The position numbers were made by a program, and so were the translations under genes. Shown here piece after piece: positions 16,425-60,404 of a stretch of DNA of 64,000 nucleotides (positions are counted from its first letter, which is position 1; every line of letters begins with the position of its first letter). The DNA lies in the NCBI GenBank assembly GCA_050258755.1, contig JBLMZI010000011.1, positions 198,751 to 262,750 of the forward strand, read 5' to 3'. The notes beneath the pieces were generated by a model, which worked only from the letters and a program-made list of their open reading frames with translations, was not told where the DNA came from and searched no databases. This DNA comes from Solirubrobacterales bacterium (GTDB taxonomy: Bacteria; Bacillota; Syntrophomonadia; Syntrophomonadales; DTU052).

Positions 16425-16475
16425 CGCGGAAACGAAGCCGGCCCACCCGATAAAATGGAGGATGGAGCTGATACC

Positions 16476-17291: not shown

Positions 17292-17369
17292 TCCCCGGAA
17301 ACCAAAAAACCGATAATGGAAACAGGAAAAGGACGCCGAAATTTTAGCGAAATCCAGGAGGCCTTATCG

Positions 17370-18257: not shown

Positions 18258-18397
18258 TCAGCCTTCAAGGGCTATTTGTGGATTTTTTCTTGGAATTTCG
18301 ACGAATTATCCCTACAGACGGCGGCCTAAGCGTGCTATGATGGAAACGTAATGCGTTTCAATGGGTGCTTGATTAGAATCGTTGGGAGGCGTAACGG

Positions 18398-20596
18398 TTG
18401 AAAAAGAGCAAGGTGGCGACGGGGATTTACTGGGTGGAGATTCCGGAGGTGGATCTGCGGATTCTTTGCGGATGTCCGGCCGATGCGATCAAGCATCTCA
18501 TGAAAAAGGACTTTATCACCACGGTCGAGGCCGAGGGTTACTCGTTTGAAACCGGGCCGAACGCCATCCTGCTTTCCGATTTGCCCCTGCAGAACGAACG
18601 CTTTGCCAACCTTGCCGAATTCCCAGTGCTTCAGATGCTTTACCGCCAGGGGATGCTGCTGCCCAAACACCCGAACAACAAAGGCGTCCGCCCGATGCTG
18701 ATCGGTGCCGCGGATTGCGTAAACGCCCAGGCGGAATACATATTCCGGGGGAATTACGGCTTAGTCAGCCTGGAAGAAATCATGTCGACTGGCGTGAGCG
18801 AAGCCGAGGCACAGGAAATGATGCGGGTGAAGCTTCGATTTGCCTTTGGGCGGATTCGCCCGACCGAGGAATTGCTCGATCTTCAGGTTGTTGGCGATGA
18901 GCCGCTTGAAATCCGGACCGGTGTGTTCGTGGAGCGGAAGAGCCTGAACCGGTATGAAATCCGGTACGAAAACGAGACCGTAATGGTTGATTTAAACCTT
19001 GAATCCACAGAGGCCTACGAGCCGGCTTACCAACTTGGCTTTACCGATGCCGGCGCGCAGTACTTTTCCATTATCCATACCGGCGAAGGCGATGGCTGGG
19101 ATACCCACCGTCCCTGCATGGCAAGCATTGTGACCTTCCAGGGCAGATACTATCTGGTGGATGCCGGGCCGAATCTGCTGCACAGCCTTGAAGCCCTGGG
19201 GATTGGCATCAGCGAAATTGAAGGCGTCTTTCAGACCCACGCCCATGACGACCATTTCTGCGGCATTACCACCCTGATCCGTTCGGATCACCGGTTAAAA
19301 TACTATGCCACCCCCACAGTCCGAAAATCGGCGCAGTTGAAGCTCGAAGCGCTCACCGGGATTACCCCGGAACAATTCGCGGTTTATTTCGATACTCACG
19401 ATCTCGTGCCAGACGAATGGAATGATATCGAGGGGCTCGAGGTAAAACCCATCTATTCGCCGCACCCGGTTGAAACCACCGCCTTTTTGTTCCGGGCCTT
19501 GTGGAGCGGCGGATACCGAACGTATGCCCACCTGGCCGATATTGTTTCCCTTCCCGTCCTAAAGCGAATGATTTCTGACAGTACCGCCATGACCGGGATT
19601 TCGCGCGAACGATACAATAAGGTGAAAGCGGACTATTTTGAGCCCGCCAATCTCAAGAAAATTGACGTCGGCGGCGGAATGATTCACGGATCGGCCAAGG
19701 ATTTTCGGCATGATCCGTCCCCGTTGATTCTGAGTCATACGGCCTTGCCGCTGACTGACCAGGAAAAGGAACTCGGGGACAGCGCGACCTTCGGCTCGGT
19801 TGATGTTTTGATCCATTCCCAGCACGATTATCTGCTGAAGGTGGCGGTCAGGCATTTCAGCGAGTTCTTTCCGGATGTGCCCCAGCATGAAATCGCGATG
19901 CTGCGGAACTGCCCGCTGGTGTCTTTCAATCCGGGCCGCAACCTGATTCGGAACGAAGAGCGGTGCAAGGAAGTCTACTATATTTTGTCCGGCCTGGTGG
20001 ATTACCGCAATGCGCATTCAAATTTCCACAGCATTCTTGGAATCGGTTCGTTTATCGGCGAGCTTTCCTGCCTAATGGCGGGCGAGACTCAGGGGACTTA
20101 CCGGGCGGCCAGCTATGTGAAAGCGCTGGCCATTCCGAGTGAACTGTATATGGCTTTCTTAAACCGGAATGGGATACTGGAGTCAGCCCGGAGCCATGCT
20201 GAAAAAAGGTTGTTTCTTCAGAACACCTGGCTGTTTGGCGAGCGGATTTCCTGTCCGGTGCGCGGCCGGATCGCCCGGGAGATGACCGAGGAGTCGTTTG
20301 AGGCAGGCAAGACCATTCGTTTCTCCAACAAGCCGGCGCTTTATCTTCTGGCCAGCGGGGAAGTGATTCTTTCGGCCGGGAAGCGGGAATTTGAATACTG
20401 TCAGGCCGGCAAATGTTTCGGCGAAGAAAGCATTATCTGCGGGAGACGGCTGTATTCGGCGAAGGCGTACGACCCGGTCAGCGTATACCGGATTCCTGCG
20501 GAAACGCTGAAGGATATTCCGATTGCCCAGTGGAAGCTCCTGGAGGTTTACGAACGGCGCCGGCGCGGCGCGATGGATATTCGCGGCTGGAAATAG
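18398..20596 (+). CDS. Three-part protein: unknown N-terminal domain, MBL-fold hydrolase, two cyclic-nucleotide-binding domains
   Basis: TTG start after GGGAGG. THAHDDHFCG is an HxHxDH metallo-beta-lactamase motif. Two CAP/CNB-like segments are present (FIGELSCLMAGETQGTYRAAS and CFGEESIICGRRLYSAKAYD). Confidence 0.8.
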   Translation: MKKSKVATGIYWVEIPEVDLRILCGCPADAIKHLMKKDFITTVEAEGYSFETGPNAILLSDLPLQNERFANLAEFPVLQMLYRQGMLLPKHPNNKGVRPMLIGAADCVNAQAEYIFRGNYGLVSLEEIMSTGVSEAEAQEMMRVKLRFAFGRIRPTEELLDLQVVGDEPLEIRTGVFVERKSLNRYEIRYENETVMVDLNLESTEAYEPAYQLGFTDAGAQYFSIIHTGEGDGWDTHRPCMASIVTFQGRYYLVDAGPNLLHSLEALGIGISEIEGVFQTHAHDDHFCGITTLIRSDHRLKYYATPTVRKSAQLKLEALTGITPEQFAVYFDTHDLVPDEWNDIEGLEVKPIYSPHPVETTAFLFRALWSGGYRTYAHLADIVSLPVLKRMISDSTAMTGISRERYNKVKADYFEPANLKKIDVGGGMIHGSAKDFRHDPSPLILSHTALPLTDQEKELGDSATFGSVDVLIHSQHDYLLKVAVRHFSEFFPDVPQHEIAMLRNCPLVSFNPGRNLIRNEERCKEVYYILSGLVDYRNAHSNFHSILGIGSFIGELSCLMAGETQGTYRAASYVKALAIPSELYMAFLNRNGILESARSHAEKRLFLQNTWLFGERISCPVRGRIAREMTEESFEAGKTIRFSNKPALYLLASGEVILSAGKREFEYCQAGKCFGEESIICGRRLYSAKAYDPVSVYRIPAETLKDIPIAQWKLLEVYERRRRGAMDIRGWK

Positions 20597-20637
20597 CCGT
20601 CTGCTGACAGAGAACAAGAAGGAGGGTTTGACCAGGA

Positions 20638-21537
20638 ATGCTTATCCGTTTAAGAAACAGCTTGATTTTCAGATCTTTTGACGAGTATGCCCGGGAACCG
20701 GTTGGGAAAGCCATGGGGTTTTTGGCCGTCCTGGTCCTGCTGGTCAGTCTCCCGGTGCTGGGTATGTACTGCTATAACCTGATGCAGGGCATTGACGAGA
20801 TGACAAAGGAAGCTGCTAAAATGCCGGACTTCACGTTTTCCGGCGGAAAGCTTACGGTGAACGCTCCGATGCCGATTGTCCAGGAAAACGGAGCTTCGCT
20901 GATCGTCATCGACACGAGCAATCAGACGCCGCCGACAGTTCTGGACCAATACGCCGACGGCATGATCATTTACAACGACCGGATGATTCAGAAACAGGCA
21001 GGCGGCTCTACCCGCGAAACGAAATTTGAACCGTTTGCCAAGTATTCATTCAATAAAGCTGAACTGATTCGAGCGGTTCCGTATTTAAAATGGATCAGCG
21101 TCCTGGTGGTCGTTTTCGGCTTAATCTATTTCTTCCTCGGCAAACTGCTGCAGGCCACGGTTTTTGCTTTGATCGGCCTGGTAGTGGGAGCGATCCGCAA
21201 GACTGAATTTGGCTACGGTTCGGCATTCATTATCGCAATTTACGCGCTGATCTGGCCGTCTGTCATTCAGGCGGTGCTTCGGATCGGATTTGATGCGTAC
21301 CCCTACCCGTATCCCGGGTGGACCTATTGGGGGCTGTTCCTGATCTGTATGATTGCCGGTGTCATTATGGCAACGCCGCCGAAGACCGAACCGGTGCCGG
21401 AAGCCGCCGGCGCACCGTTTGCGGCTACGCCAACCCAGGTCATCGATGTGACACCAGCGGAACCGGAAGCCGATGTCGCACCCACGCCGCCTGAGGGGGC
21501 GCCGTTGACCGGTGAAGAGCCATCGAAGCAGGAATAA
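20638..21537 (+). CDS. DUF1189-like polytopic membrane protein with Pro/Ala/Glu-rich C-terminal tail
   Basis: N-terminal TM, an extracytoplasmic segment PDFTFSGGKLTV...IVIDTS, four more TM helices, then TPPKTEPVPEAAGAP...PAEPEADVAPTPPEGAP. Confidence 0.65.
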   Translation: MLIRLRNSLIFRSFDEYAREPVGKAMGFLAVLVLLVSLPVLGMYCYNLMQGIDEMTKEAAKMPDFTFSGGKLTVNAPMPIVQENGASLIVIDTSNQTPPTVLDQYADGMIIYNDRMIQKQAGGSTRETKFEPFAKYSFNKAELIRAVPYLKWISVLVVVFGLIYFFLGKLLQATVFALIGLVVGAIRKTEFGYGSAFIIAIYALIWPSVIQAVLRIGFDAYPYPYPGWTYWGLFLICMIAGVIMATPPKTEPVPEAAGAPFAATPTQVIDVTPAEPEADVAPTPPEGAPLTGEEPSKQE

Positions 21538-21565
21538 AGGCAGCGCAATCGAATACGAAACCGAG

Positions 21566-21590
21566 AGAGCCGGAAATACCGGCTCTTTTT
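21566..21590 (+). terminator. Rho-independent terminator
   Basis: AGAGCCGG-aaata-CCGGCTCT followed by TTTTT. Confidence 0.8.
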
Positions 21591-21694
21591 ATGTCCAAAC
21601 AGCATAGAATCCCCTAAATTTAGGCGAACTGCGAACTATTTCGGGTGTATCGCGTATTCTGGTAGCAGAATGGGCTGAACAAGGAGGGAACGAT

Positions 21695-22153
21695 TTGGTG
21701 AGGCAAGGAAGATGTCCGTCATATATCCAACCTGATTTTCCGGGCACGGTACCGGGGCTGGAAGAAGCCATGCGGGGCGAGTCGGGAGCGATTGTTTTTT
21801 ATTCCTATCTGATCGACATGGCGCCGGACGAAAGGCAGCGGCGGGTCCTGATGAGTATTCGGTCGGATGAGGAGCGCCACTTGAACAATTTTCAGGCGGT
21901 GTACTGCCAGTACACCGGGAGCACGTACCGGGTTCCGACACCGGACGTAAGGCCGCCGGAAACGTATTTGGACGGACTGGAACGTGCTTTTCAGGATGAA
22001 CAGGAAGCGTATGAGTTTTACAAGGCGAATTATGAAGGCAACCGAAATCCGCGGATTAAGCAGGCCTTTTTTGACGCCATGCTTGATGAGGCAGAACATG
22101 CCCGATGGTTCAACAACATCATTCTATTGACGCATCATCAACACATGCCGTAA
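21695..22153 (+). CDS. Ferritin-like / rubrerythrin-family four-helix-bundle protein
   Basis: Two ExxH motifs (DEERHLNNF, DEAEHARWF), each preceded by a Glu-containing helix. This is diiron-carboxylate-like. The start codon is uncertain. Confidence 0.65.
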   Translation: MVRQGRCPSYIQPDFPGTVPGLEEAMRGESGAIVFYSYLIDMAPDERQRRVLMSIRSDEERHLNNFQAVYCQYTGSTYRVPTPDVRPPETYLDGLERAFQDEQEAYEFYKANYEGNRNPRIKQAFFDAMLDEAEHARWFNNIILLTHHQHMP

Positions 22154-31851: not shown

Positions 31852-32688
31852 ATGATACTAGAGACAACTTTCGAAGAATTTGCGGCGGCGTTTGCCCTGG
31901 TGATGCCCTATTTAAAAACAATATTCGGCAGGGATCTTGCGGTGAACATCTCAACACCAGACCACTTTGTGGCCTATCAGGGGGCGGATAGTTTTGATCT
32001 TCCAGTTCAACCGGGTATGCCGATTCCGAAAGAGGACCCGATGAATGCCGCCATGTCGATGAAACAGCAACTGATCGCACCAGTTCCAGTCGAGGCTTAC
32101 GGCGTTCCGTTTAAGGCGGTGGTTACGCCGCTTCTGGATCGCCAGGGCAAGGTGCTTGGCTGCATTGGGATTGGACTGGTTCAAAAAACCGAGTCCCAGG
32201 TCATCGAATTAGCCAATAATGTCGGAGAATCCATGGACGAGGTTGCCGGTGCGGTAACCCAGATCGCAAGCGCTGCAATGGGGATCAATGAGCGGGAAAA
32301 GGAACTGCATAACAGTATCGAGCAAATTTCGGGCATCGCCCGCAAGATTGACGATGTGTTGAATGGCATCAAGGTGATTGCTGACCAAACCAAAATGCTT
32401 GGCCTTAATGCCGCCATTGAAGCCGCCCGGGCTGGAGAAGCGGGCCGCGGATTCGGCGTGGTGGCAGAGGAAATTCGGAAGCTGTCCGATGAATCAAAGA
32501 ATACGGCGGAACAGATCCGCGCGTTGACGGTTCAGATTGACCGCTTCATTGCCGAAACACTTCAGAATTCCGAATCAACCGTTCGTTCCAGCGAAGAACA
32601 GGCCGCGGCGACCGAGGAGATCACGGCGAGCATCGAAGAAATTACGGCACTGGCGGAACAGCTTCGCCGGATTGCCCAGCAGCTGTAG
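31852..32688 (+). CDS. Soluble methyl-accepting chemotaxis protein
   Basis: Highly conserved MCP hairpin [37 protein letters not shown]. There is no TM helix, and a strong GGAGGAGGAG SD is present. Confidence 0.88.
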
Positions 32689-35320: not shown

Positions 35321-35450
35321 GTTCCTTCAATTCACGCAAGGCCGAATAGAGTCGGCAGTCAAATCGCCATAGCTACGGCCACAGAGTTGTGCTATTTTTA
35401 CACTAGATGCCTTGCGGGTACTTGATTATGAGTTTGGGGGGGCTTGCTTC

Positions 35451-36581
35451 ATGGAACGGCAGCAGATTATCGATAAGGCCATGGAATTGGGCTTTTGCGA
35501 TATCGGATTCACCACCGCCGAGCCGTTTGAAACCCAGCGCGAGATATTGAGGGAACGGGCGGATTCCTACGCCTGGTTGGCTGAAAAGGGGACCGATCTT
35601 TTCGCGGGTGTAGATCCGGCTTCGGTCATGCCGAATGCACAATCAATCATTGTTCTGGTGGACAACTACTATTCAGGCGCCTTTCCGGCTTCACTGGTCG
35701 GCAAATTTGGGCGCTGCTACCTGGACGACGACCGCGTGACCCGGGACGGGCTTGCGGTACGGATCAAACAATTTCGGGCTTTTCTCCGGGATCTCGGCAT
35801 TGATTCAAAGGTTCCGTTTAACGTGCCGCACCGGCTGGCGGCAGCCCGAGCCGGGCTCGGGACATTCGGAAAAAACTGCCTGTTTTACGCTCGGGAAGGG
35901 GTGCGCGGGGCCTCATGGGTGAGCCCAATGGCGATTGTGGTCGATCGCCGGTTCGAACCGGACCCGCCTACAATGCGGCTCGGGTGTCCGGACTGGTGCC
36001 GGAATGCCTGCATTGCCGCCTGCCCGATGGGCGCGCTGCGCGGTCCCCAGAAAATTGATCCCAAACGCTGCATTTCCTATCTGAGCTACTATGGCGACGG
36101 TATTACCCCACCGGAACTCAGGGAACCGATGGGTATGTGGGTGTATGGCTGCGACCGGTGCCAGACGGTTTGCCCGCGCAACGAGCCGTGGACGGCGCAG
36201 AACCTGGCGCCCAATCCCCGTGTGGCCGCCAAAGCGGAAGATTTCGATTTGATCGCCCTGCTGCATATGGACCGGGACTACTTCAAACAAAGAATTTGGC
36301 CGCACATGTTTTACATGTCGTCCAAGGATATCTGGCGCTGGAAGATGAATGTTGCCCGGGTGATGGGCAACAGCCATGATCCGGGTTATGTTCCGGAACT
36401 TCTGCGGGCGTTTCGCGAGAATGAGGATGAGCGGGTCCGCGGGATGATCGCCTGGGCCATGGGACGGCTTGGCGGGACTGAAGCGGCGGCGTTTTTATCG
36501 GACCAGGCGCCGGATGCCGAAGGGTTGGTCCGGGAAGAGATTGAAAGGGCCATGATCGCCCTTGCCGGATCAATTAAATAG
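35451..36581 (+). CDS. queG: tRNA epoxyqueuosine(34) reductase
   Basis: DUF1730-type N-terminus, CPDWCRNACIAACP and CDRCQTVCP clusters, and a C-terminal HEAT-like DERVRGMIAWAMGRLG. Confidence 0.85.
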   Translation: MERQQIIDKAMELGFCDIGFTTAEPFETQREILRERADSYAWLAEKGTDLFAGVDPASVMPNAQSIIVLVDNYYSGAFPASLVGKFGRCYLDDDRVTRDGLAVRIKQFRAFLRDLGIDSKVPFNVPHRLAAARAGLGTFGKNCLFYAREGVRGASWVSPMAIVVDRRFEPDPPTMRLGCPDWCRNACIAACPMGALRGPQKIDPKRCISYLSYYGDGITPPELREPMGMWVYGCDRCQTVCPRNEPWTAQNLAPNPRVAAKAEDFDLIALLHMDRDYFKQRIWPHMFYMSSKDIWRWKMNVARVMGNSHDPGYVPELLRAFRENEDERVRGMIAWAMGRLGGTEAAAFLSDQAPDAEGLVREEIERAMIALAGSIK

Positions 36582-36593
36582 GGATCAGAAGAA

Positions 36594-36640
36594 AACGGCC
36601 GGGATTGCACAGCACCGTAATCCTGGCCGTTTTTTGTTTC
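36594..36640. terminator. Bidirectional terminator between queG and the flagellin gene
   Basis: 13-bp stem AACGGCCGGGATT/AATCCTGGCCGTT. TTTTTGTTT follows on the plus strand and TTTTCTTCT on the minus strand. Confidence 0.8.
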
Positions 36641-36646: not shown

Positions 36647-39600
36647 CTATTTTCCGCCCAGCAGTTGGAGCACCATTTGCGGCCGCTGGTTGGCCTGGGC
36701 CAGCATGGCAGTTCCGGCCTGGCCCAAAATATTGACCTTGGTGTATTCCATCATTTCCTTGGCCATATCGACATCGCGGATGCGGGATTCTGAGCTGGTC
36801 AGGTTTTCCTCGGCAACGGAAAGGTTGTTTATGGCATGTTCCAGGCGGTTCTGAAGTGCGCCCACATCGGAACGCAGACCCGATACCCGGCTGATGGCGG
36901 CATCCAGGTGACTAATGGCCCGTCCCGCGAGTTCCCGAGTAGTGACTAAAAGGCCGGCCACACCGAGCCCGCGCGAACCGATTTCACCGAGCGCTAGACG
37001 GAGCGCCTGGTTTTCGCCGGCGCCGCCCTGTAGCGCGATCTGACGGTCGGCAAGGTGTATATATTCCCGATCCGCGCCGCCCTTTAAGGTGAAGGAATCG
37101 GTATCGGAATCGTAAGATGCCTGGGTCATGCCCAGCGATGCGCCCAACTGCAGCTCGATACCGTTGCTGAATACCGTTTCCATTGACTGTCCGGACGGAA
37201 GGACCTGCTCGGCCAGGGTTTCACCGGTATTCGCATCGGCGACGCTGACGGTAAGGGTATTGTCGGTTCCCTTCTGCAGCGAAGTCAGACCCAGGGCCCG
37301 CATGATGTCCTCATCCCCGACAATATTCAGATCTCCGGCCGTGCCAGCGACTGCGGAGCGAATCACTAGACTGCCCTCAACCTGTTCCAGCCCGGTTGAA
37401 TCACTTACCCAATCGACAAAAGTCGCGAATTTGTTTTTATCATTTCCGGCGACCAGTGTGTTCTGGCCCAGGTCTTCGTAAACCGCCTGGTTGATGCGGT
37501 CGAGAATATCGATGATCTCGTCAGTGGCATAAAGCGACACTTCGGCGGTCTTGCCGTTGCTGATCAGGGTCAGGGTTCGCGGCGTATCAAGCAGATACCG
37601 CCCGTCCCCGTTATAGAAATTGGTGATATCCTGCAGTTTTGTGTAGTGATGCGCCATTCGGGCATCGGTTCCGGTTTCGCCCGTGGTGAAAACCGCGGCA
37701 TCAGTGACTTTGCGCGGGGTCATTAAGTTGTTGGTGACGCCAAGGGCGGTGCCGCCCAGGAAGTCATTAAAACCAAGCGCCATTTCGGCATCGTGGATAT
37801 CCCCGTTTTGGCTGTTGGTCTGGTAAAAACGCAGGGGCGTGGTCCGGCTGTCCAGAACGCCTTCATTAAAGCGCCAGGAAACCGGGTAGGGGGTTGGTTC
37901 TCCCAAGTTCATCGCCTGGAAGAGATCCAATTCATCCGCAGCAGGGCTTGCCTGTGCATCAGCCGAGACCGAAAGACAGACTCGGTCGCCGGTTTGCAGT
38001 TCACTTAAATCCGCCCAATCAAAGTTGGTAAAGTTGATGCCGCTGAATCCGGACGTGGAGAACAGGTTGCAGTTCGGGTTGTTAAGCCCCATGGAAATCG
38101 AATCGTCATAGACGTAGGTATAATTGCCGTTCTTGTCGTAGCAATGGGCCTGACCGCGCAGAATCACCCGGTTGTCCAGCACGGTCAGCACCTCGAGCAT
38201 GATGGAGGCATTGTATGGATTGGCGGGATCTGCTTCAATTTGGCCGATAAACGCCCCGATTGTATCGCTTGAACCGCGGCCTTGAAAATAGGAGCTGGTA
38301 ATGGATGCGCCACCCGCCGGAACAGTACGGCCTTGATAATTGACTTCCAGCGTGGCGGCGGAATTGGTGCCAAATACAGTGCCGGCGGCCAGGCCGGTCC
38401 CTTCGAGTATGGCCAGAATACTGCCGGTTTCGACCGAACCGTCGAGCGGATTAACGAACCAACCGGCCAGATTCAAGGTCAACCCGTTTTCGGCATCCTG
38501 CGCAAACCGGTATTCGATCGTACTTCCGCCGGATGCCCAGGGATTTCCCGTTACCCGGATGTTGGCATCGGAGTGCTGGTTGGGCGGTAGGTTGTGATAA
38601 GCCGCGTCACCCGCCCGGGCGGAGACATTGACCACAAACCGGTCACCCACCGTCAGGCTGCCGCCAAGGTTAAACTGGTCGAATTGGAGCGGGCCAACCG
38701 TTAAGGCGCCGCCCGGAACCGCCAGATCGACCGGCCCAAAGTCATTTGGCAGGCCGTTTCGGTTGTAACCCTTGCCTTGAAAACGGATGGTCGGCGGAAT
38801 CCCGTTGCTGACCACCTCGCACAAAAGGGAACAGTTGTCATCTTCCTGGCTCCAGGCGTTGATTCCGGTCAGGTAAGTGGCCGGGTTTCCGCCATTGGCA
38901 AAATAGTAGGTCGTATCGCTGCCATAAGAAGCGTATGCTTCGTGGTTGAAGCCAGCGGCGGCGTATCGTTCGCTGTAAGTGACCGCATTAGCCTGGGTGG
39001 CGATGGTGCCGAAATCGATATTGTGCTGAACCGTGGCTGAGGTTCCGATGCCAGTTCGAACCAGCTGCGGCAGCAGAACCGCGCTGTTGTTGTCCAGCAC
39101 TCCATTATTAAACCGGTAGCGGGTAGTGAACGTGTCGTTGGTCGCGCCGTCGAGCAGTTCCGAATCAACCTGATCATAGGCGCCGGCGGCCGCGGCCGAG
39201 GTATATAGAGTCCAGGAATCACCGACGGCCAGTTCGGCCCCGTTTGTGCTGTCGGGCAGGGTAATAGAGGTAAATGGCAGCGGCTGACCGGAGAGCACCA
39301 GCGAGTTGTTGGTGCCAAGCCGGCCTTCCCACCAATCGTCGGAGTGGGTTCCGGAAACCAGCGTGCCGTTATTGCTGACTCCGGTCCAGGTCGTCTGAAC
39401 GGTAACCCGGTCTCGTGCCTGCAGCCACAGTGTGTTGACTGGAGCCGCACCGGCCCGTATGGTTTGAGCGCCTCCGAAAAGGGTAGTGCAGCCGGCTCCG
39501 GTCAGGCGGACTTCCCGGCGGGTGGGAGCGGTATCGTTATTGTCAAACTGGAATTGTCCGTAGGCCTGGCTGGTGTCATCCGGGGTGGTCAGCCAGTTTA

Positions 39601-41839
39601 CAGCAAAGTTGGCCGGATCCCAGGCTGCCATCGCGGCCCGAGCCTGTTCTATTGTTGAACCAGCGGGAATCACGGCGCCCAGCACGGTATTGTAATCTTT
39701 CGCGGTACCGAACACAGCCGCGCCGCGGCCGCAGGCACCCGCGATACCGCATTCGGTGATGGTGGAACCGCCGCCGCCGACTGTAATCTGATACCGGGTA
39801 TTATTGAGGTCGTTTCGAACATTGATAACCTGCTGGGCCCCGGCCGCCTGCATCTGAAAGACCGGTCCCGCAGGGGGGGCTAAATCGGCAAGGGCAATTG
39901 CGTTGGTCATCGCGGTATTCAAAGCAGCAGTGATTTGGTTGAGGACTATAGCGTTAAAGGCAATTGGGTTGCTGGTATATCCATGCAGAACCCGATTGCC
40001 GGTCGAGCTTCCGCTAGCCGTCACCGTCATGCCGCCCAGCCCCAGGTCGGTTTCGGCCGAACCGGCCGCCCCATCGGTCAGAAACGTAACCGAACGATCG
40101 GCCGTGTTGTTCACGACTTGAAGCCGGTACACCCCGCCGGTAAGATCGACTGCCATCGCGTCAACATTATAGCCGGGAACGCCGGCAAACGCAGCATCGA
40201 TCGCGGTGCCGATCTGCTGAATGTTTCTTGAGCTGATGTCAATGATCAGCGATCGGTCGTAATCCTGGGCTGTGCCATCGGTCAGCCCGGACGGTATGAA
40301 GCCGCCAGTCAAAGCGCCATCAACACCGAGCGTTGTTGCAGCGGAACCCGACAGCTTAAGCGTGATTCCGGCGCCTAACGTATTGTTGATCCGAAGCTGC
40401 AGTTGGTCGCCTCCGGCGACAGTCGATAAGGTGACATCCGTGGCCAAGACTCCGCCATGCAGCCCGTTGGCGGCTGCTTCCAGCGCTAACGCGGTATCAT
40501 CCATATTCAGGCCGCTGACGTCGACGTCGACATCATCCGTGGTGCCATTGTCGTCTATCTCGATATTAATTACCGAGCCGGGCGGATTGGTGTAGTAAAG
40601 CCTGGCTTCCACGGTTTCCGCGGCACCAGACATATAGGTCAGGCCGAGGGTTGCATTATCGCCGTTAGCCGACCGGTAATAGGTCCGGGCCGAGATGGTG
40701 CCGGCCAGCGTGGTTCTGGCCTGGGTACCGGTTACCTCAAAAGATGTGTACATGTTGTTGGCGTAATTGGGATTGGTCGTATAAGATACGTCGCCGCCGG
40801 CGGGAGCACCATTGATGGTTATTGAGCCGCCCCCGGCGCCGCCGATATCGGTCCAGGCGGCCTGGGTTTGGGAGGTGGCCGGCCCGGCCGCGGCCGTGAT
40901 ATCCATCTGGACATCGATATTAGCACGCCCGGTTGCGCTTACCCCGTTGATGACATCAGGCCCGGCCACAGTATCGGCATAAACGGCCATAAACGGAACC
41001 GTGTCCGCGACCTGTACCGTATAGTCCCCGTAAGGAACCAGATCCGGGCTGGGAGTGCTTGACACGGTGATGCCCAGATCAACGTCCGGTGTGGCGGTGT
41101 CAGCGCCGCCGGGATCTATATAAGAAATGCCGCCAAATGGGGTTTCTCTGGCCTCCAACCGATAATCGCCTTCGGCTAATCCGGCCGCCTGCAGAGACTT
41201 CAACCCGGTATAGGCACCGGAAGCCGGTTTATCGGTGAATTCGGTAACTCCGGTAACCCGCGCGAGCATGGCGTTGGTTCCCTGAATTTGCGCGGTACCC
41301 GGGGTTGCCTGAAGATCCAGTCGGTACTCGCCGCTGGCCGGAACCGCGCCAGGTTTGGTGCCGACCGAACCGGTGGACACCACCCGCACATCGTTGCTGG
41401 AACTGCTCCAGAGCAGGGACGATGAGCCATCTAGAAGGTTTTTCTGGTTAAAGGTCGTGGAGCGGGAGATTTCATCCAGCCCTTGCTTCAGTTGATCCAT
41501 TTCTTTCTGGATTTCCATCCGGTCGTTCATGGTATTGGTGTCATTGGCCCCTTGCACGGCCAATTCGCGCATGCGCTGCAGAATGCTGTGGCATTCGGAA
41601 AGCGCGCCGTCAGCGGTCTGCAGCAGGGAAACCCCGTCCTGCAGGTTTCTTCCCGCCTGAGAAAGACCGGCGATTTGCGCGCGCATTTTCTCGGAAATCG
41701 CAAGGCCAGCCGCGTCGTCCGCCGCCTTGTTGATTCTGAGACCGGAAGATAAGCGCTCCAGAGCCTTCCCGGCCGATGTGCTGGTGCGGCTGAGCGCATG
41801 ATATGTATTTAATGATTGAATGTTATGGAAGATGCGCAT
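36647..41839 (-). CDS. fliC: Giant flagellin (about 1,730 aa)
   Basis: N-terminus MRIFHNIQSLNTYHAL...LSSGLRINKAADDAAGLAISEKMRAQI...ILQRMRELAVQGAND. C-terminus LQNRLEHAINNL...SRIRDVDMAKEMMEYTKVNILGQAGTAMLAQANQ. The start was set at the ATG seven nt after GGGAG, not at the track Met at 42004. Confidence 0.9.
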   Translation of the reverse strand: MRIFHNIQSLNTYHALSRTSTSAGKALERLSSGLRINKAADDAAGLAISEKMRAQIAGLSQAGRNLQDGVSLLQTADGALSECHSILQRMRELAVQGANDTNTMNDRMEIQKEMDQLKQGLDEISRSTTFNQKNLLDGSSSLLWSSSSNDVRVVSTGSVGTKPGAVPASGEYRLDLQATPGTAQIQGTNAMLARVTGVTEFTDKPASGAYTGLKSLQAAGLAEGDYRLEARETPFGGISYIDPGGADTATPDVDLGITVSSTPSPDLVPYGDYTVQVADTVPFMAVYADTVAGPDVINGVSATGRANIDVQMDITAAAGPATSQTQAAWTDIGGAGGGSITINGAPAGGDVSYTTNPNYANNMYTSFEVTGTQARTTLAGTISARTYYRSANGDNATLGLTYMSGAAETVEARLYYTNPPGSVINIEIDDNGTTDDVDVDVSGLNMDDTALALEAAANGLHGGVLATDVTLSTVAGGDQLQLRINNTLGAGITLKLSGSAATTLGVDGALTGGFIPSGLTDGTAQDYDRSLIIDISSRNIQQIGTAIDAAFAGVPGYNVDAMAVDLTGGVYRLQVVNNTADRSVTFLTDGAAGSAETDLGLGGMTVTASGSSTGNRVLHGYTSNPIAFNAIVLNQITAALNTAMTNAIALADLAPPAGPVFQMQAAGAQQVINVRNDLNNTRYQITVGGGGSTITECGIAGACGRGAAVFGTAKDYNTVLGAVIPAGSTIEQARAAMAAWDPANFAVNWLTTPDDTSQAYGQFQFDNNDTAPTRREVRLTGAGCTTLFGGAQTIRAGAAPVNTLWLQARDRVTVQTTWTGVSNNGTLVSGTHSDDWWEGRLGTNNSLVLSGQPLPFTSITLPDSTNGAELAVGDSWTLYTSAAAAGAYDQVDSELLDGATNDTFTTRYRFNNGVLDNNSAVLLPQLVRTGIGTSATVQHNIDFGTIATQANAVTYSERYAAAGFNHEAYASYGSDTTYYFANGGNPATYLTGINAWSQEDDNCSLLCEVVSNGIPPTIRFQGKGYNRNGLPNDFGPVDLAVPGGALTVGPLQFDQFNLGGSLTVGDRFVVNVSARAGDAAYHNLPPNQHSDANIRVTGNPWASGGSTIEYRFAQDAENGLTLNLAGWFVNPLDGSVETGSILAILEGTGLAAGTVFGTNSAATLEVNYQGRTVPAGGASITSSYFQGRGSSDTIGAFIGQIEADPANPYNASIMLEVLTVLDNRVILRGQAHCYDKNGNYTYVYDDSISMGLNNPNCNLFSTSGFSGINFTNFDWADLSELQTGDRVCLSVSADAQASPAADELDLFQAMNLGEPTPYPVSWRFNEGVLDSRTTPLRFYQTNSQNGDIHDAEMALGFNDFLGGTALGVTNNLMTPRKVTDAAVFTTGETGTDARMAHHYTKLQDITNFYNGDGRYLLDTPRTLTLISNGKTAEVSLYATDEIIDILDRINQAVYEDLGQNTLVAGNDKNKFATFVDWVSDSTGLEQVEGSLVIRSAVAGTAGDLNIVGDEDIMRALGLTSLQKGTDNTLTVSVADANTGETLAEQVLPSGQSMETVFSNGIELQLGASLGMTQASYDSDTDSFTLKGGADREYIHLADRQIALQGGAGENQALRLALGEIGSRGLGVAGLLVTTRELAGRAISHLDAAISRVSGLRSDVGALQNRLEHAINNLSVAEENLTSSESRIRDVDMAKEMMEYTKVNILGQAGTAMLAQANQRPQMVLQLLGGK
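37650..39260 (-). repeat. Three divergent tandem ~190-220-aa modules inside the flagellin variable region
   Basis: L(A/T/Q)(V/T)GD(S/R)... motifs lie near 39222, 38648 and 37990. Each is followed 110-145 nt later by (Y/W)RF(N/A) near 39110, 38505 and 37875. Modules one and two also share (I/L)R(F/G)Q(G/A)...(N/D)(R/K)NG. Confidence 0.6.
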
Positions 41840-42084
41840 GAGAAAGCTCCCAGCGGCCGTCGGGAAAAAACCAAACGGCGGATTCCGGGCGCATTTGGCG
41901 GCGCGGCATGAACCAGACAGCCGTCGGAGCGGATTTCCCCCTTTTTGACCAGGGAAACCCCCTCGTATTGCAAGACTGCGCTGGTGCAGAGGCGGATGCG
42001 TCATTCAGTCGGCATCCAGGGGCATCTCTTCCGTGAGAGGCCTGCCCGTTTTAACCCGCGAAACCAACCCGGTTTCTGTATACT

Positions 42085-42111
42085 ATATCGAGCACTTGTC
42101 AGAGATTCTTG
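42085..42111 (-). promoter_or_regulatory. Weak candidate sigma-28 (SigD/FliA)-type promoter upstream of the flagellin gene
   Basis: On the minus strand CTCGATAT matches the GCCGATAT consensus at six of eight positions. The -35 is poor (CAAG vs TAAA at 15-nt spacing). It would give a ~240-nt leader. Confidence 0.25.
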
Positions 42112-42262
42112 AGTGCCGGCTGGCACTAAAATGAGCCACATGCCAGAAAAAGGACATACCCCAAGCCGTCGGCATGTTCTATGAAACAAAGTGTGCGGGT
42201 GCTGTTATCCAGATGCGAGCGGAGTGGCTGGGCAGAAATGAAGCGGCGAAAGGCGTTGACCG

Positions 42263-43327
42263 TCATTGTTTGATGGCTTGCCAGATGGCCAGACCGAATT
42301 CAAGGGCGATCAGGACGATGATGGTCCACTCCAGGAAATTGGAGTGCTGGATATTGACCTCGTTGCTGAGCATCACATAGTTTTCCTGAATGACCTGAAT
42401 CTTGCGGTTGACACTGACGGTCCACTGCTCAGAGCGGAGCACGCGCAGGGCGGTTTCGTAGACCCGTGCGTAATAAACGTCTTCGGTGATCTTGATCAGG
42501 TTGTCAATCTTTTCCCGGATATCCGAAACATCGGCATGCAGTTCCATGATGTCGGCCATGATCCGGCGGTACTGCCGCAGGCGAAGGAACCGGTTCATGC
42601 GATCCGCCGAGGCCAGGTCGTCATACATTAAATCCATCTGGCGGCTGAGTTTTCGGTCATAGTAACGCAGAGCAAGCAGCTGTACATTGGCGAACTCGAT
42701 GAGATCCATCAGATCGGTGGAAGGGTCGGGACCGGAAAGCAGTGCGGTATCCCAGGTCAGGACCGCTCGGTCTTCGGCGCTGTAGCTCAGGCTCCCGCGC
42801 AGGATATCATCCCGGATTGAAGGTGAGAAATTGTTTTTTTCGCCCATTAGGACCGTGACCGGATCAAGGCGCTCATGGAGGGTATCCACCCGGTATATGG
42901 TGTAGTCCTCATAGAAATCAGGATCGGTGTCAACGCTGCCCAGATGCGGTTCCAAAATGGACAATACCGCCTTTAAGTACTGGTCAAACGGATCGTCCAG
43001 ATGACGCTGACCGGCAAAAAACAGGGCGATGGATTCAAGTTCCTCCGGGTCCGCGGCCAAGTCCTCAAACATCATAGCAAGACTGATCGAGCCGGTATCG
43101 AAAATCCGGGCACGAACGTCAAAGCGCAGGGAACGGTCTGGATACGGGCACACAAACGGGTTCAGCCGAAGGGTCAGCGGCCAGGTGCCGATGACGATAG
43201 ATTTCGGCCGTATTCTTACGAAACGGGTCCGGGCAATCGAATGGTCCTGGGCCAGCCGGGACTCCAGCCGGTCCAGGTCGATCTCCAGACCGGTCTCAAA
43301 GATGCGATAGAATTTCACGGCGATCAT
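42263..43327 (-). CDS. RMD1/DUF155-like protein with a single C-terminal TM helix
   Basis: 354 aa, a soluble body plus the C-terminal NFLEWTIIVLIALEFGLAIW. This resembles the DUF155 C-terminal (R/F)LEWxIIxLIxxE motif. The family assignment is from memory. Confidence 0.5.
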   Translation of the reverse strand: MIAVKFYRIFETGLEIDLDRLESRLAQDHSIARTRFVRIRPKSIVIGTWPLTLRLNPFVCPYPDRSLRFDVRARIFDTGSISLAMMFEDLAADPEELESIALFFAGQRHLDDPFDQYLKAVLSILEPHLGSVDTDPDFYEDYTIYRVDTLHERLDPVTVLMGEKNNFSPSIRDDILRGSLSYSAEDRAVLTWDTALLSGPDPSTDLMDLIEFANVQLLALRYYDRKLSRQMDLMYDDLASADRMNRFLRLRQYRRIMADIMELHADVSDIREKIDNLIKITEDVYYARVYETALRVLRSEQWTVSVNRKIQVIQENYVMLSNEVNIQHSNFLEWTIIVLIALEFGLAIWQAIKQ

Positions 43328-46335: not shown

Positions 46336-46525
46336 CGGCTTTCAGCACCTCGTTCATCATGATGCCGGACCCGGTTTCCCCAGGTCCTTTGTCTCATTGT
46401 ACCCCGGTGTGTGGAAAGAAAATAGGGTCAGTTCTTCCAGCAAATGCGGGCAGGGCTTCTAAACGACACAGCAGCATGGGATACTGAATGGATAAAAGGA
46501 ATATGCATCCATCGAGGTGGTATTT

Positions 46526-47098
46526 ATGAAAAAACAATCAAACCGATTTCGGTTCAGCGGCAGTCGGGGCGTGGTGGCCGGAATACTCATCGGGATGGTC
46601 TTTCTGATGCCAGGATGTCACGGCGCCGAAAAGAAAATCGGCGCCAATCCGGTAAAGAAGGCCGAGTCAGGAGAAAGAGCGCAGCAGCAAACGGTTCAGC
46701 TGTATTTTGCGGACGCCGAAGCCACGGCCTTGGTTGCGGAACCGCGCCGGCTTCAAGCCAGTGAGGCGGAACTGCCAAAAGCCATCGTTGAGGCGTTGGT
46801 TCAGGGCCCCAAACGGCCGGGATCATTTCCGACCATTCCGCCAGGCACGAAAGTAAATCGCGTTTCTGTCGCTGGTGGGACCGCCGCGGTTGATTTCTCG
46901 AACGCCATCCGAACCGCGGGCTGGGGCGGATCAGCCGGGGAAGGACTTCTGGTGTATTCTGTGGTGCAAAGCCTGACGCAGCTGCCGGGGATCGAACGGG
47001 TCCAGTTTCTCATCGACGGGAAAACGGTTGAAACCTTCTGGGGGCACATGGATACAACACAGCCGTTTCTGCCAATGCCGGACCAGGTCCGCGAATAG
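46526..47098 (+). CDS. GerMN domain protein (sporulation/germination-associated), probable lipoprotein
   Basis: Signal peptide ending in PGC, then the GerMN pattern VQLYF...ALVQGP...TKVNRVSVAGGTAAVDFS...SLTQLPGIERVQFLIDG. Confidence 0.8.
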   Translation: MKKQSNRFRFSGSRGVVAGILIGMVFLMPGCHGAEKKIGANPVKKAESGERAQQQTVQLYFADAEATALVAEPRRLQASEAELPKAIVEALVQGPKRPGSFPTIPPGTKVNRVSVAGGTAAVDFSNAIRTAGWGGSAGEGLLVYSVVQSLTQLPGIERVQFLIDGKTVETFWGHMDTTQPFLPMPDQVRE

Positions 47099-58090: not shown

Positions 58091-59275
58091 TTACTCGGGT
58101 TGCGGCGGTTCGGCGCCGCTCCTTTCGGTTAAGCTTCTTTGAACCGCCAGCAGGACCGAACCGAAGGCCAGCAGGACCACCACTATGGTGATCAGGCAGC
58201 CGACAAAGGGGATCAGCTTGAGCAGAGACAGCAGGAAGATGCCAAACAGGGCGATCAAAGCCGGGTGTTCGATCTTTAGCGTTTCCGGGAAGACCTCAAC
58301 CAGCGACTTGCCCAGCTGGCTGCCGACCAACATGCTGGCGGCCAGGGTGAGCGCGGTCAGGAACATCACTCCGATCACCGCCAGTGGGATGCCTACGATC
58401 GTGATGAATATCAGAAGCAGGGCAACCGGTGAAACGACGGCCAGGAAGATGCCCCAGGCCAGGCTGCCGCCGGGCTTCTGCTGGATTTCACGCTGAACCG
58501 CGGCCAGCGAAGCCGGGCTGAGATAATACCAGAGTCCCCAAAGTACCAGCAGCATGAGCACACCGATCAGCATTTGCACAACCTTTCCGGCCAGAGACGT
58601 TTCTTTGGGATGCGGTGGCTGCTGATTCGGCACCGGTTTCTGATAAATGGTTTTCCCGGCGATTACGGCGCCCGGATCGACGGCCGCTCGTTGGCTGCTG
58701 GTATAGCTCAAATCGCCCTGAACCCGGGCGTTGGTTCCCAGGGTCAGACGAGAGCAGCCAGCTTTGACATTACCGCCAACCGGGGCGTTCAAGAAAAACT
58801 TTTCCGATCCGAGGGTTACATTTTTTCCGATCGGACCATTCAGGGTCATGGTCGGAATCCAGCCGGTAAAACTGCCGGCGATCTTCGAACCCGGCGCGGT
58901 ATCCCCAGACTGGCAGAACAACAGCGCATTCCGGCCGATCGTTCCGTTGATTTGGAGCGTCTGCGACATACTGCGCAGATTATTGTCGACCTGGCCGTTG
59001 ATCACGACGTTCTGCGAGAAGAGAATCAAATCCCCGGTCACGGTGCCGTTCAACTCAAAATCCTGCGCCGACACGGCGAGGTCGCCATATACGGTGCCAT
59101 TGACAACCACGCGCTGTGCGGCGAGGGCCATGTCGTCCTGAATGACTTCGCCGGAACCGATGGTAATGGTTTGGTCGGCCGAGCGCTGATCCCAGGCCAG
59201 AGCCGGCATCGCCGTAAGAAACATGAGCAGCAGGGCCGCCGCTAGAATCCAACCGGCTTTTTGTTTGTTTTTCAT
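58091..59275 (-). CDS. Exported beta-helix repeat (bactofilin/polymer-forming-like) protein with C-terminal multi-TM anchor
   Basis: Signal peptide, then about nine ~20-aa repeats of the form xxxxxNGxVxGDLxxxxx, then four to five TM helices. The start was trimmed to ATG 59275. Confidence 0.7.
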   Translation of the reverse strand: MKNKQKAGWILAAALLLMFLTAMPALAWDQRSADQTITIGSGEVIQDDMALAAQRVVVNGTVYGDLAVSAQDFELNGTVTGDLILFSQNVVINGQVDNNLRSMSQTLQINGTIGRNALLFCQSGDTAPGSKIAGSFTGWIPTMTLNGPIGKNVTLGSEKFFLNAPVGGNVKAGCSRLTLGTNARVQGDLSYTSSQRAAVDPGAVIAGKTIYQKPVPNQQPPHPKETSLAGKVVQMLIGVLMLLVLWGLWYYLSPASLAAVQREIQQKPGGSLAWGIFLAVVSPVALLLIFITIVGIPLAVIGVMFLTALTLAASMLVGSQLGKSLVEVFPETLKIEHPALIALFGIFLLSLLKLIPFVGCLITIVVVLLAFGSVLLAVQRSLTERSGAEPPQPE

Positions 59276-59292
59276 GGTTTTTCCCCCCAATA

Positions 59293-59847
59293 TCAATGAA
59301 TCGTACGGGCTGTTCCGCGGGGACGCCAGCCCAGATACATCATCACAAGCATGACGGCGCTTACGGTCAGGCACCAGAGGGCGGCGTAGTCCGTCAGGCT
59401 GTTCAGCAAACCGGGTCGCACGGCAAGATGATTAATCATGGACACAATCAGGCCCGACAAGCTGGTAATAAGCCGCGTAACCGCAATATTGCCTGCAGAG
59501 CCGCTGATCCATGCGATGCTGGCACCGCCCGGCGCCGCCAGAACCGCCTGCCAGAGCCAAAAGCCCAGATAGACGCCGAAGCTAAGGGCAAACATAAGCA
59601 GGAAGCCGGAACGGGTTTGATATTTCACCGGTGAATGGAGCGGAATCGGTGCGGCTGCAAGCTGTTCCTCCGCTTCCGCTTGAAACAACCGAGTCAGCCA
59701 GAGATCGGAGGCGGCGATGCTTTCTAACCGACTGCGGCAGGCGGCGCACAGATCAAGATGGTTTTGGACAGCACTCGCTTCTTCCGGGGTCAGTTCACGG
59801 TCTTGAAAAAACTGCAGGGTTGTTTCCGGAATACAGAATGGATTCAT
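59293..59847 (-). CDS. Anti-sigma factor (zf-HC2) with membrane domain
   Basis: HLDLCAACR is the Hx3Cx2C motif, followed by TM helices. ATGA overlap with the sigma gene. Confidence 0.8.
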   Translation of the reverse strand: MNPFCIPETTLQFFQDRELTPEEASAVQNHLDLCAACRSRLESIAASDLWLTRLFQAEAEEQLAAAPIPLHSPVKYQTRSGFLLMFALSFGVYLGFWLWQAVLAAPGGASIAWISGSAGNIAVTRLITSLSGLIVSMINHLAVRPGLLNSLTDYAALWCLTVSAVMLVMMYLGWRPRGTARTIH

Positions 59848-60404
59848 TGATTTGCGCCTCCTTCCTTCATGGCCTGCATCAACTGTTTTTTCGCCCGGTG
59901 CAGCCGGGTGCCGATGGTACCGCTTGGCATTCCGGTAATCCGGGAGATATCCTCGTACGATTTCCCCTGATCGTATTTCAGGGACAGGATCAGTCGGTCA
60001 TCGGGATCAAGGACCGCCAGTGCGGATCGAAGCCGATCAAGGCGGTCCGCTTGGTCCAACTGCTCATGGAATTGTTGAATTCCCGGGTCATCTGCCGCGG
60101 CTGCGGTGTCCTCCAGGGGGCTTTCCCGGGAATGGGACCGGCGCCGGAGCGAGTTATTGGCCTCATTGACGGTGATCCGGTAAAGCCAGGTTGAAAAGGA
60201 TGCTTTGCCTTCGAAGCGTGCCAGGCCCCGGTACGCTTTCAGGAAGGTTTCCGATACGACGTCCAGTGCGTCATCCTGATTTCCGCACATCCGCCAGGCC
60301 AGTGCAAAAACATCTTTCCGGTACCGTTCGTACAGGTCTTCGAAAAGTGCGTTTTCTCCGGCCACTATTCGGGCGATCATGGCTTTTTCGTCGATCGCAG
60401 ACAC
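59844..60404 (-). CDS. ECF-type RNA polymerase sigma-70 family factor
   Basis: Region 2 (DVVSETFLKAYRGLARFEGKASFSTWLYRITVNEA) and region 4 (SYEDISRITGMPSGTIGTRLHRAKKQL). GTG start seven nt after GGAGGG. Confidence 0.9.
   Translation of the reverse strand: MSAIDEKAMIARIVAGENALFEDLYERYRKDVFALAWRMCGNQDDALDVVSETFLKAYRGLARFEGKASFSTWLYRITVNEANNSLRRRSHSRESPLEDTAAAADDPGIQQFHEQLDQADRLDRLRSALAVLDPDDRLILSLKYDQGKSYEDISRITGMPSGTIGTRLHRAKKQLMQAMKEGGANQ

Follow-up and report, generated by a model that had tools for sequence, protein, structure and literature searches.

A 1,730-residue flagellin that probably belongs to a conserved family of super-giant flagellins in anaerobic bacteria

The gene at positions 36647..41839 on the minus strand of the window (the whole stretch of 64,000 nucleotides analysed here) encodes a complete flagellin of 1,730 amino acids. 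To judge from its sequence, the protein would be a structural flagellin, a subunit of the filament, within a conserved, experimentally uncharacterised 'super-giant' family, and the probability of this reading is put at roughly 0.8. Lengths in that family extend from about 1,730 to 2,320 amino acids, and no other complete member is as short; its members occur among anaerobic bacteria belonging to three phyla. A sequence-only reading of the same DNA had described an orphan giant flagellin at the extreme end of the size range. At 1,730 residues the protein does belong to the giant class of more than 1,000 amino acids and is a real giant flagellin, but it is no orphan and does not set a record for size. 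NCBI already lists an identical protein under the title 'MAG: flagellin [Solirubrobacterales bacterium]' (P0001).

Flagellin identity is evident at both ends of the protein. The N-terminal D0/D1 helical region (residues 1-145; 41405..41839, minus strand) was delimited with Pfam, NCBIfam and PDB flagellins, and the C-terminal D1/D0 helical region (residues 1601-1730; 36650..37039, minus strand) with Pfam Flagellin_C and a long helix in the AlphaFold2 model. Flagellin_N (PF00669) aligns residues 3-140 with profile positions 1-138 of 139 (E 4.9e-44; 150 bits, cut-off 26.6), and Flagellin_C (PF00700) aligns residues 1643-1727 with positions 2-86 of 86 (E 1.4e-28; 99.5 bits, cut-off 23). The termini thus score strongly in the profile search proposed earlier, and their description as canonical D0/D1 domains holds over the full length of both profiles. 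Sixty solved PDB flagellins match the termini, the best match being Geovibrio thiophilus flagellin 9AU6 (E 6e-90). The top NCBIfam model is flagellin Hag (1.6e-85, 287 bits), and 20 other flagellin models score 108-228 bits, the E values of the flagellin models ranging from 1e-85 to 1e-42. In all studied flagellins, the D0/D1 segments hold the type III export signal and form the inner core of the filament.

Flagellin_N is matched by FlgL as well, and two family representatives are named 'flagellin-like hook-associated protein FlgL' in their source, while a giant FlgL of 1,184 amino acids is encoded beside relatives of the gene (L001). That the protein is an FlgL-like hook-filament junction protein and not a flagellin is nevertheless extremely improbable, and this identity was rejected, as the flagellin models far outscore the FlgL model TIGR02550 (Hag 287 bits vs 106 bits, 1.9e-30). 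The TIGR02550 score falls under its 127-bit cut-off; the full-length NCBIfam flagellin cut-offs are all missed too, which is expected, since the termini alone align. Flagellin_C, moreover, is matched over its full length, and in L001 the homologue has a distinct FlgL as its neighbour, which starts in the usual way with MGYRITNNMM and shares only 26% identity over 123 residues with the present protein.

The open reading frame is uninterrupted over 5.2 kb, and positions 36647-41839 translate into 1,730 codons plus a stop (36647-36649). Its product is an acidic protein of 181 kDa with a pI of 4.4. The stop-to-stop frame reaches upstream to an ATG at 42004. Three lines of evidence support the ATG at 41839 as the likely true start, because a Shine-Dalgarno sequence, GGGAG, lies 7 nt upstream (41847..41851, minus strand), the match to the Flagellin_N profile starts at residue 3, and homologues begin with MRI at the corresponding position. 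On retranslation, this ATG and the terminal sequences reported earlier were reproduced exactly. A strong hairpin with a 19-bp stem and A/T runs on both sides (36590..36635) is located between the convergent queG-like and flagellin genes and is probably a bidirectional intrinsic terminator. The gene, which has its own Shine-Dalgarno sequence and terminator, is apparently monocistronic and set apart from the remaining flagellar regulon. The sigma-28/sigma-D-like promoter candidate upstream (TCAA-N15-GCTCGATA; 42086..42112, minus strand) is weak and tentative, a poor match; the homologues in L024, L008 and L006 have clear sigma-28-type sites upstream. An assembly chimera seems unlikely because the whole protein can be aligned colinearly with P0002 (39% identity), and a single HMMER stretch (query 18-1200) joins it to P0007 (48% identity).

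Pfam scans of about 55 ORFs of the window (those taken for real genes, almost all of at least 150 amino acids) identified no further flagellar family, and tblastn queries taken from homologous loci (FliW, CsrA, FlaG, FlgK, FlgL, FlgN, FlgM, Maf and FliS) gave nothing credible there, in agreement with the earlier observation that the gene stands alone across 64 kb. The downstream gene (35412-36581) shows the QueG-like architecture of Fer4_16 and HEAT that had been anticipated. The upstream neighbour, a gene of 354 amino acids (42263-43327), matches no Pfam family at a threshold as loose as E<=1, so that its earlier label of DUF155-like is not supported. A gene for MCP signalling is located 4 kb from the flagellin gene, and a 42.5% homologue of it is encoded near the closest relative's gene; its presence hints at a motile lifestyle.

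This isolated position, together with the weak promoter candidate and a family distribution over several phyla that suggests transfer, would suit a silent or decaying relic, acquired horizontally by a host that no longer builds flagella. Such a history is very improbable: the 5.2-kb frame is intact and retains its Shine-Dalgarno sequence and terminator, all family motifs are kept, the GC content agrees with that of the flanks, and the MCP gene is close by. The genes of the two closest relatives (L008, L009) are likewise stand-alone and intact, with no flagellar neighbourhood at the locus.

Function as a filament subunit is the best reading because several homologues are found in canonical late flagellar clusters. 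A flagellar neighbourhood is present at the homologue loci L001-L004, L020, L022, L024, L005 and L015. The gene of P0002 (Synergistaceae) is flanked by FlgM-FlgN-FlgK-FlgL on one side and by FliW-CsrA-Maf-flagellin-FlaG with nonulosonic-acid genes on the other, the L005 homologue (Syntrophomonadaceae) adjoins FliS, FlaG and FlgN, and FliW-CsrA is located upstream of the homologue in L015. L001 also encodes a flagellin of 975 amino acids.

The insert between the termini contains about 1,450 residues. It had been described as rich in G, T, A, N, S, D and V and poor in Lys and Arg, which agrees well with the composition found (A/G/T/L/D/V/N/S-rich; K 0.9%, R 3.7%), and the outer domain carries 151 D+E vs 68 K+R. 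The N-proximal outer region (residues 146-428; 40556..41404, minus strand) was defined by blastp and the family alignment. Its first ~80 residues are common to flagellins of 800-975 amino acids, and blastp aligns residues 1-226 with the 975-aa flagellin of L001 (48% identity). Behind this region are four tandem modules of ~90 amino acids, weakly Flagellin_IN-like (residues 429-508, 524-603, 616-701 and 713-791; 39449..40555, minus strand), which were located with a module HMM. An HMM from the six modules of P0008 alone recovers the four at i-E 2e-3, 1.4e-10, 2.8e-7 and 4e-4. The repeats are visible solely with an HMM from a relative's modules; blastp self-comparison, relaxed settings included, detects no internal repeats, and the module profile finds nothing under E 0.05 among PDB sequences.

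The conserved outer-domain core (residues 798-1394, about 600 amino acids; 37658..39448, minus strand) was recognised by family conservation and invariant columns, and includes the motifs WQARD, WWEG, SERY, WRQEDxN, KGYxRxG, GDKFVxNxAARAG and EYRF. Conservation is 0.37-0.48 per 50-residue block in the core vs 0.41-0.58 in D0/D1; judged by these values, the core is about as conserved as D0/D1 and the insert is not hypervariable. The core has no Pfam match, residues 800-1130 match no PDB sequence, and the core profile finds nothing under E 0.05 in PDB. Residues ~1195-1394 of the core are common to flagellins of 800-900 amino acids. As the insert aligns colinearly at 39-48% with P0002 and P0007 and its core is conserved, the gene is considered real and under selection.

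The C-proximal outer region (residues 1395-1600; 37040..37657, minus strand) is defined by homology to the G. thiophilus flagellin's outer domain and is also common to P0003-P0006. Residues 1395-1580 align with residues 455-642 of 9au6_A by phmmer (E 1.1e-10), and Foldseek matches the AlphaFold2 model with the same chain (E 1.9e-14). Flagellin_IN-like segments had been named in the insert: the C-proximal one does lie in a conserved module, homologous to the G. thiophilus flagellin, but the whole-protein Pfam scan yields no PF07196 match at E<=1, the four central modules included. An HMM search with the C-proximal IN-like module (1418-1525) leaves the central modules undetected, and the two are therefore not demonstrably one domain. 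Structure prediction, proposed earlier for residues ~180-1600, produced no usable fold: residues 141-1140, with an alignment of two sequences, gave an unusable pLDDT of 29.5, and residues 1101-1730, with six sequences, 43.9. The domain picture is therefore one of sequence analysis alone. From the second model, the Foldseek match to 9AU6 is the sole result used, and weak Foldseek matches (E>0.09) to a norovirus P-domain and to phage were disregarded.

Word-indexed searches with the insert, alone or as an alignment, return just the protein itself and P0002, and the apparent orphan status is a sensitivity artefact. An exhaustive HMMER search retrieved 34 representatives at 50% clustering, among them one spurious repeat protein (P0031) that was rejected, and a scan of species-representative genomes gave 37 loci. 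The source genome is outside the scanned species representatives, where the best match has 57% identity. The loci come from MAGs labelled mainly as Syntrophomonadaceae/Bacillota, Thermotogota and Synergistota. The family (P0002, P0007-P0029 and L005-L041) is characterised by the core motifs D[KR]FV[IV]N[VI][AS]A and W[RS]QED[DV]NxS together with the tandem ~90-aa modules, and the present protein shows this signature. Genes are complete at 21 of the 37 loci and encode 1,731-2,319 amino acids. Module copies number from 4 in members of 1,730-1,830 amino acids to 9 in the member of 2,319 (Spearman 0.93), and the repeat array would explain most of the family's size range.

These results alter the standing first given to the protein. 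Its length is not at the extreme, in view of the 21 complete members and of UniProt flagellins of up to 1,965 amino acids in 2017, and giant flagellins, which had been thought to come from only a few lineages, are reported from many phyla (PMC6248924). Homologues of equal length are indeed common in the clade, as had been considered possible; they are experimentally uncharacterised.

In the filament, the ~1,450 residues of the insert would be displayed on the surface in a nested arrangement, in which regions 146-428 and 1395-1600, akin to the outer domains of the G. thiophilus flagellin, may enclose the four weakly Flagellin_IN-like modules (429-797) and the ~600-residue core (798-1394), the latter beta-rich according to low-confidence models. 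An unusually thick and strongly acidic filament would be expected, and size within the family may shift mainly by gain or loss of the ~90-aa modules. The core might stiffen or sheathe the filament, or might mediate adhesion to surfaces or partner cells. It is rather doubtful, though conceivable, that the core is a binding or catalytic domain, spread between phyla by gene transfer and presented in thousands of copies per filament, and not passive decoration. It could then attach syntrophic partners or substrates, with the modules as a tunable spacer setting how far the core projects, and the flagellum would be an interaction organelle. The isolate names of core-bearing MAGs suggest anaerobic digesters and termite guts.

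Conservation of the core at about the level of D0/D1 across three phyla is unusual for a region usually termed hypervariable, and could also be expected of an exoprotein derived from flagellin, exported by the type III route via D0/D1, that serves as a secreted or minor adhesin or as an enzyme carrier, limited for instance to one section of the filament, with the core as payload. Smaller flagellins that co-occur at the locus of relatives (975 amino acids in L001), the position of the window copy apart from flagellar genes, and the enzymatic flagellins on record, flagellinolysin among them (PMC7643111), are in line with this explanation. It is unlikely all the same, as the core contains no HExxH or other catalytic motif that could be found and has no Pfam or PDB match, and D0/D1 are of full length, typical of polymerising flagellins. 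Flagellinolysins themselves form filaments, which makes a payload compatible with the filament-subunit role preferred here.

A single gene adds little, given that giant flagellins are an established class, flagellins just as long have been in UniProt since 2017 and the NCBI annotation is already flagellin. The gain is a coherent family with a member in at least 37 species-level genomes, whose insert contains a strongly conserved core without Pfam or PDB sequence relative. The largest solved flagellin has 793 amino acids, and none of about 1,730 has been examined structurally. A structure or filament from a cultivable relative would indicate how a subunit of 180-250 kDa can leave the cell and be accommodated on a core of 11 protofilaments, and which role the conserved domain plays in communities of anaerobes.

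Among known systems, flagellinolysins (NF033876) resemble the present protein in being flagellin scaffolds whose 'variable' region holds a conserved functional domain. The protein is not a flagellinolysin, as HExxH is absent from all its 1,730 residues and the NF033876 match is restricted to the C-terminal helices (residues 1573-1658 vs profile 315-383). The Flagellin_IN motif (PF07196) of flagellins, FlgL and FliD has a similar pattern, with a conserved ELGL-type motif at the end, and is matched by 2 of 24 family modules (best E 1.6e-5); the ~90-aa modules may at best be a divergent, longer relative of it.

Giant flagellins were defined as those of more than 1,000 amino acids by Thomson et al. 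(2018, PLoS One, PMC6248924), with experimental demonstration for Bermanella marisrubri (1,020 amino acids) and Oleibacter marinus (1,190). Published filament cases stop at these two lengths, and none is shown for a flagellin above ~1,200 amino acids. Their 2017 UniProt data include flagellins of 1,965, 1,943, 1,932, 1,815, 1,675, 1,652 and 1,623 amino acids (PMC6248924, S1 File), and the sources of those of 1,600-1,965 are the genera Desulfosporosinus, Dethiosulfovibrio and Aminomonas as well as a Synergistetes MAG. The three longest are those of Desulfosporosinus youngiae (H5XV80, 1,965), Dethiosulfovibrio peptidovorans DSM 11002 (D2Z309, 1,943) and Aminomonas paucivorans DSM 12260 (E3D0Q9, 1,932). 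Like the present protein, these giant flagellins carry a very large insert at the surface between canonical D0/D1 ends and grow by internal domain duplication, whereas the Oceanospirillales inserts ('DE/DX' regions) are set apart as another homology group by the description in PMC6248924.

The closest structural comparison is the Geovibrio thiophilus flagellin (PDB 9AU6), a protein of 793 amino acids with outer domains D2-D5 that forms a filament of 240 Angstrom whose surface is negatively charged, and similar outer domains have been noted in Clostridia and Synergistia (Nat Commun 2024, PMC11532411). The present protein is more than twice as long, and neither 9AU6 nor any other PDB entry has an equivalent of its residues ~230-1394, the stretch with the four modules and the greater part of the core. 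The two share an acidic outer surface, and 9AU6 provides the only PDB match for the insert (1395-1580 vs 455-642).

The flagellin coding sequence runs from 41839 to 36647 on the minus strand and encodes 1,730 residues in an unbroken frame, with termini exactly as quoted in the sequence-only reading. Its stop-to-stop frame also holds an upstream in-frame ATG at 42004; the start is placed at 41839 because GGGAG lies 7 nt 5' of this ATG, the Flagellin_N profile is matched from residue 3, and homologues open at the same MRI.... Flagellin_N (residues 3-140, E 4.9e-44) and Flagellin_C (residues 1643-1727, E 1.4e-28) are each matched over nearly the whole Pfam profile, and the claim that this is a giant flagellin holds at that length. 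The termini match 60 solved flagellins, and the protein is already named flagellin at NCBI. It scores up to 287 bits with NCBIfam flagellin models versus 106 bits with FlgL, and a FlgL-like junction protein is hardly credible. The lack of an HExxH motif rules out flagellinolysin. The predicted mass is 181 kDa with a pI of 4.4, and the outer region carries 151 Asp and Glu against 68 Lys and Arg, with Lys accounting for only 14.

The gene is alone within the window, as had been claimed: Pfam finds no flagellar families in about 55 ORFs, a set that covers those taken for real genes (nearly all with 150 aa or more), and tblastn with FliW, CsrA, FlaG, FlgK, FlgL, FlgN, FlgM, Maf and FliS proteins from homologous loci gives only chance-level matches inside unrelated genes. 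The downstream convergent gene has a QueG-like architecture of Fer4_16 and HEAT, in line with the queG call, and is separated from the flagellin stop by a hairpin (36590-36635; 19-bp stem, flanking A and T runs) that is probably a bidirectional terminator. The upstream neighbour, described as DUF155-like, matches no Pfam family, even with the threshold relaxed to E<=1; this gene (42263-43327, minus strand) encodes a 354-aa protein with a hydrophobic helix at its C-terminal end, and none of the related loci has a homologue of it. The closest motility-related gene is that of an MCP-signalling protein about 4 kb away (31852-32688, plus strand). Farther off (5150-9582, plus strand), the gene of a 949-aa multi-PAS histidine kinase overlaps by 4 bases that of a response regulator that combines DUF3369 with an HD_5 domain of the HD-GYP type; the two are likely to act together as a c-di-GMP phosphodiesterase pair and could be relevant to how motility is controlled. 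Three genes at 58091-60404 (minus strand) appear to form an operon: their products are a sigma factor of the ECF type (59844-60404), a zf-HC2 anti-sigma protein (59293-59847) and a protein of 427 aa that matches bactofilin weakly (58091-59374).

The insert belongs to a family and is no orphan. When it was used to query 5.8 billion proteins by word-indexed search, the hits were limited to the window protein itself and P0002, a protein of 1,830 aa that is 37-39% identical and colinear throughout. Exhaustive HMMER search, run against 1.84 billion cluster representatives, gave 34 hits at E<=1e-3, and 21 of these reach E<=1e-30; one of the 34 (P0031) is a spurious repeat protein and was rejected. 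The relatives are mostly 1,600-2,100 aa long, their flagellin N- and C-termini share 48-68% identity with those of the window protein, and MAGs of Bacillota, Syntrophomonas and Synergistales are among the sources named. Scanning one genome per GTDB species with an alignment of core residues 800-1130 gave 37 family loci. Their MAGs are labelled Syntrophomonadaceae, Syntrophomonas or Bacillota; Thermotogaceae or Thermotogota; or Synergistaceae, Synergistales, Aminobacteriaceae or Fretibacterium. A few bear odd labels, among them Acidobacteriota, Chitinophagales and Patescibacteria. Complete genes, measured from flagellin N-terminus to C-terminus, are present at 21 of the 37 loci and encode 1,731-2,319 aa, so the window protein is the shortest complete member.

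"Solirubrobacterales" is the NCBI label on the source MAG and on P0001, the entry identical to the window protein. The window has a GC content of 53-59% and encodes a GerM/Germane sporulation-type domain protein (46517-47098), a sigma-54 activator, many Fe-S proteins and acyl-CoA enzymes. Gene content and the affiliations of the closest flagellin homologues suggest an anaerobic Bacillota host; with the GC content, the GerM/Germane protein, the Fe-S-rich anaerobic genes and the Syntrophomonadaceae/Bacillota relatives, the label may be a misclassification.

The neighbourhoods of homologues support a genuine flagellar role for the family. In Synergistaceae (L001-L004, L024), the P0002 gene has FlgM-FlgN-FlgK-FlgL on one side and FliW-CsrA-Maf-flagellin (975 aa)-FlaG with NeuB/epimerase sugar genes on the other, and L020 and L022 are arranged similarly. 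In a Syntrophomonadaceae locus (L005), sugar-modification genes as well as FliS, FlaG and FlgN flank the 1,735-aa homologue, and FliW-CsrA lies upstream of the homologue in L015. Sigma-28-type promoters (TAAA-N15/16-[GA][CA]CGATA) precede the homologues in L024, L008 and L006; the window offers only a poor sigma-28-like candidate, at 42086-42112. The closest relatives, P0007 of a Bacillota MAG (L008, 48% identity) and that of L009, stand alone like the window copy. About 5 kb upstream of P0007 lies a GAF-MCP gene (936-2072) whose product is 42.5% identical to the window MCP, the sole conserved neighbour found between these two loci. The window gene, whose GC is uniform with its flanks, is very unlikely to be a silent relic.

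Junction proteins beside the Synergistaceae giant flagellin are oversized, with an FlgL of 1,184 aa (15550-19104) and an FlgK of 877 aa (19123-21756) in L001. Enlarged FlgL and FlgK occur likewise at L002-L004, L020, L022 and L024, together with the second large flagellin, which suggests that junction and filament are enlarged together. Genes for an NAD-dependent epimerase/dehydratase and a DegT-type aminotransferase lie directly 5' of the giant flagellin in L005 (440-3206), and Maf and NeuB-type genes adjoin it in L001; these sugar genes suggest that family members are glycosylated.

The insert comprises three kinds of part: proximal regions, a tandem array and a conserved core. Across the aligned family, conservation runs at 0.41-0.58 in D0/D1, the terminal helical segments, drops to 0.22-0.32 over residues ~400-750 and recovers to 0.37-0.48 over residues ~800-1500. 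The array holds four tandem modules of about 90 aa, at residues 426-513, 522-610, 614-706 and 711-797 (independent E 2e-3, 1.4e-10, 2.8e-7 and 4e-4), detected with an HMM built solely from six visually delimited modules of the homologue P0008. Module number rises with length, from 4 at 1,730-1,830 aa to 9 at 2,319 aa (Spearman rho 0.93; 21 complete members and the window protein); the longest member seen, of about 2,319 aa, is from a Thermotogota MAG (L014, 1128-8225). Pfam Flagellin_IN is matched by 2 of 24 family modules (best E 1.6e-5) and by none of the window protein's own four, so that a relationship to Flagellin_IN is plausible but weak. The core (residues 798-1394) has invariant motifs including WQARD, WWEG, SERY, WRQEDxN, KGYxRxG, GDKFVxNxAARAG and EYRF, and has neither a Pfam match nor a sequence relative in the PDB; that it is a functional domain, serving in binding or catalysis on the filament surface and passed between syntrophic anaerobes, is a doubtful proposal. 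For the proximal regions, the 975-aa flagellin encoded beside P0002 aligns with window residues 1-226 (48% identity) and 1138-1727 (34%), and residues ~1195-1600 align with flagellins of 800-900 aa and a Syntrophomonas fragment. Predicted structure for residues 141-1140, from a two-sequence alignment, has a pLDDT of 29.5, too low to be usable.

With a probability of about 0.8, the window protein is a filament subunit. Its D0/D1 ends would direct export and polymerisation, and its large insert would form a very large acidic outer layer and hence a thick filament. Both filament formation and thickness are extrapolated from what is known of flagellins in general and from Thomson et al. 2018 (PMC6248924), where thick filaments were shown for flagellins of 1,020 and 1,190 aa. 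It is unlikely to be a carrier that exports a payload or a minor component of the filament.

The literature consulted yielded no delineation of this family, with its conserved core, varying module number and spread over three anaerobic phyla. To our knowledge, flagellins of this size class have not been the subject of experimental work. Giant flagellins, those of more than 1,000 aa, form an established class and are reported from many phyla rather than a few lineages (PMC6248924). By length, UniProt flagellins of September 2017 include those of Desulfosporosinus youngiae (1,965 aa), Dethiosulfovibrio peptidovorans (1,943 aa), Aminomonas paucivorans (1,932 aa) and a Synergistetes MAG (1,815 aa), and others of 1,675, 1,652 and 1,623 aa (PMC6248924, S1 File); 1,730 aa is therefore not exceptional, and the family itself extends to 2,319 aa. 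The sequence-only reading was thus right about a giant flagellin alone in the window, and its orphan status, extreme length and rarity among lineages fall away. The filament of Geovibrio thiophilus (9AU6), 240 Angstrom in diameter and with an acidic surface, is described as having the largest outer domains (D2-D5) of any flagellin solved to date, and similar domains were noted in Clostridia and Synergistia (PMC11532411). Window residues 1395-1580, within the C-proximal region, match residues 455-642 of its chain 9au6_A (E 1.1e-10), which is also the sole significant Foldseek match (E 1.9e-14) of a low-confidence AF2 model of residues 1101-1730.
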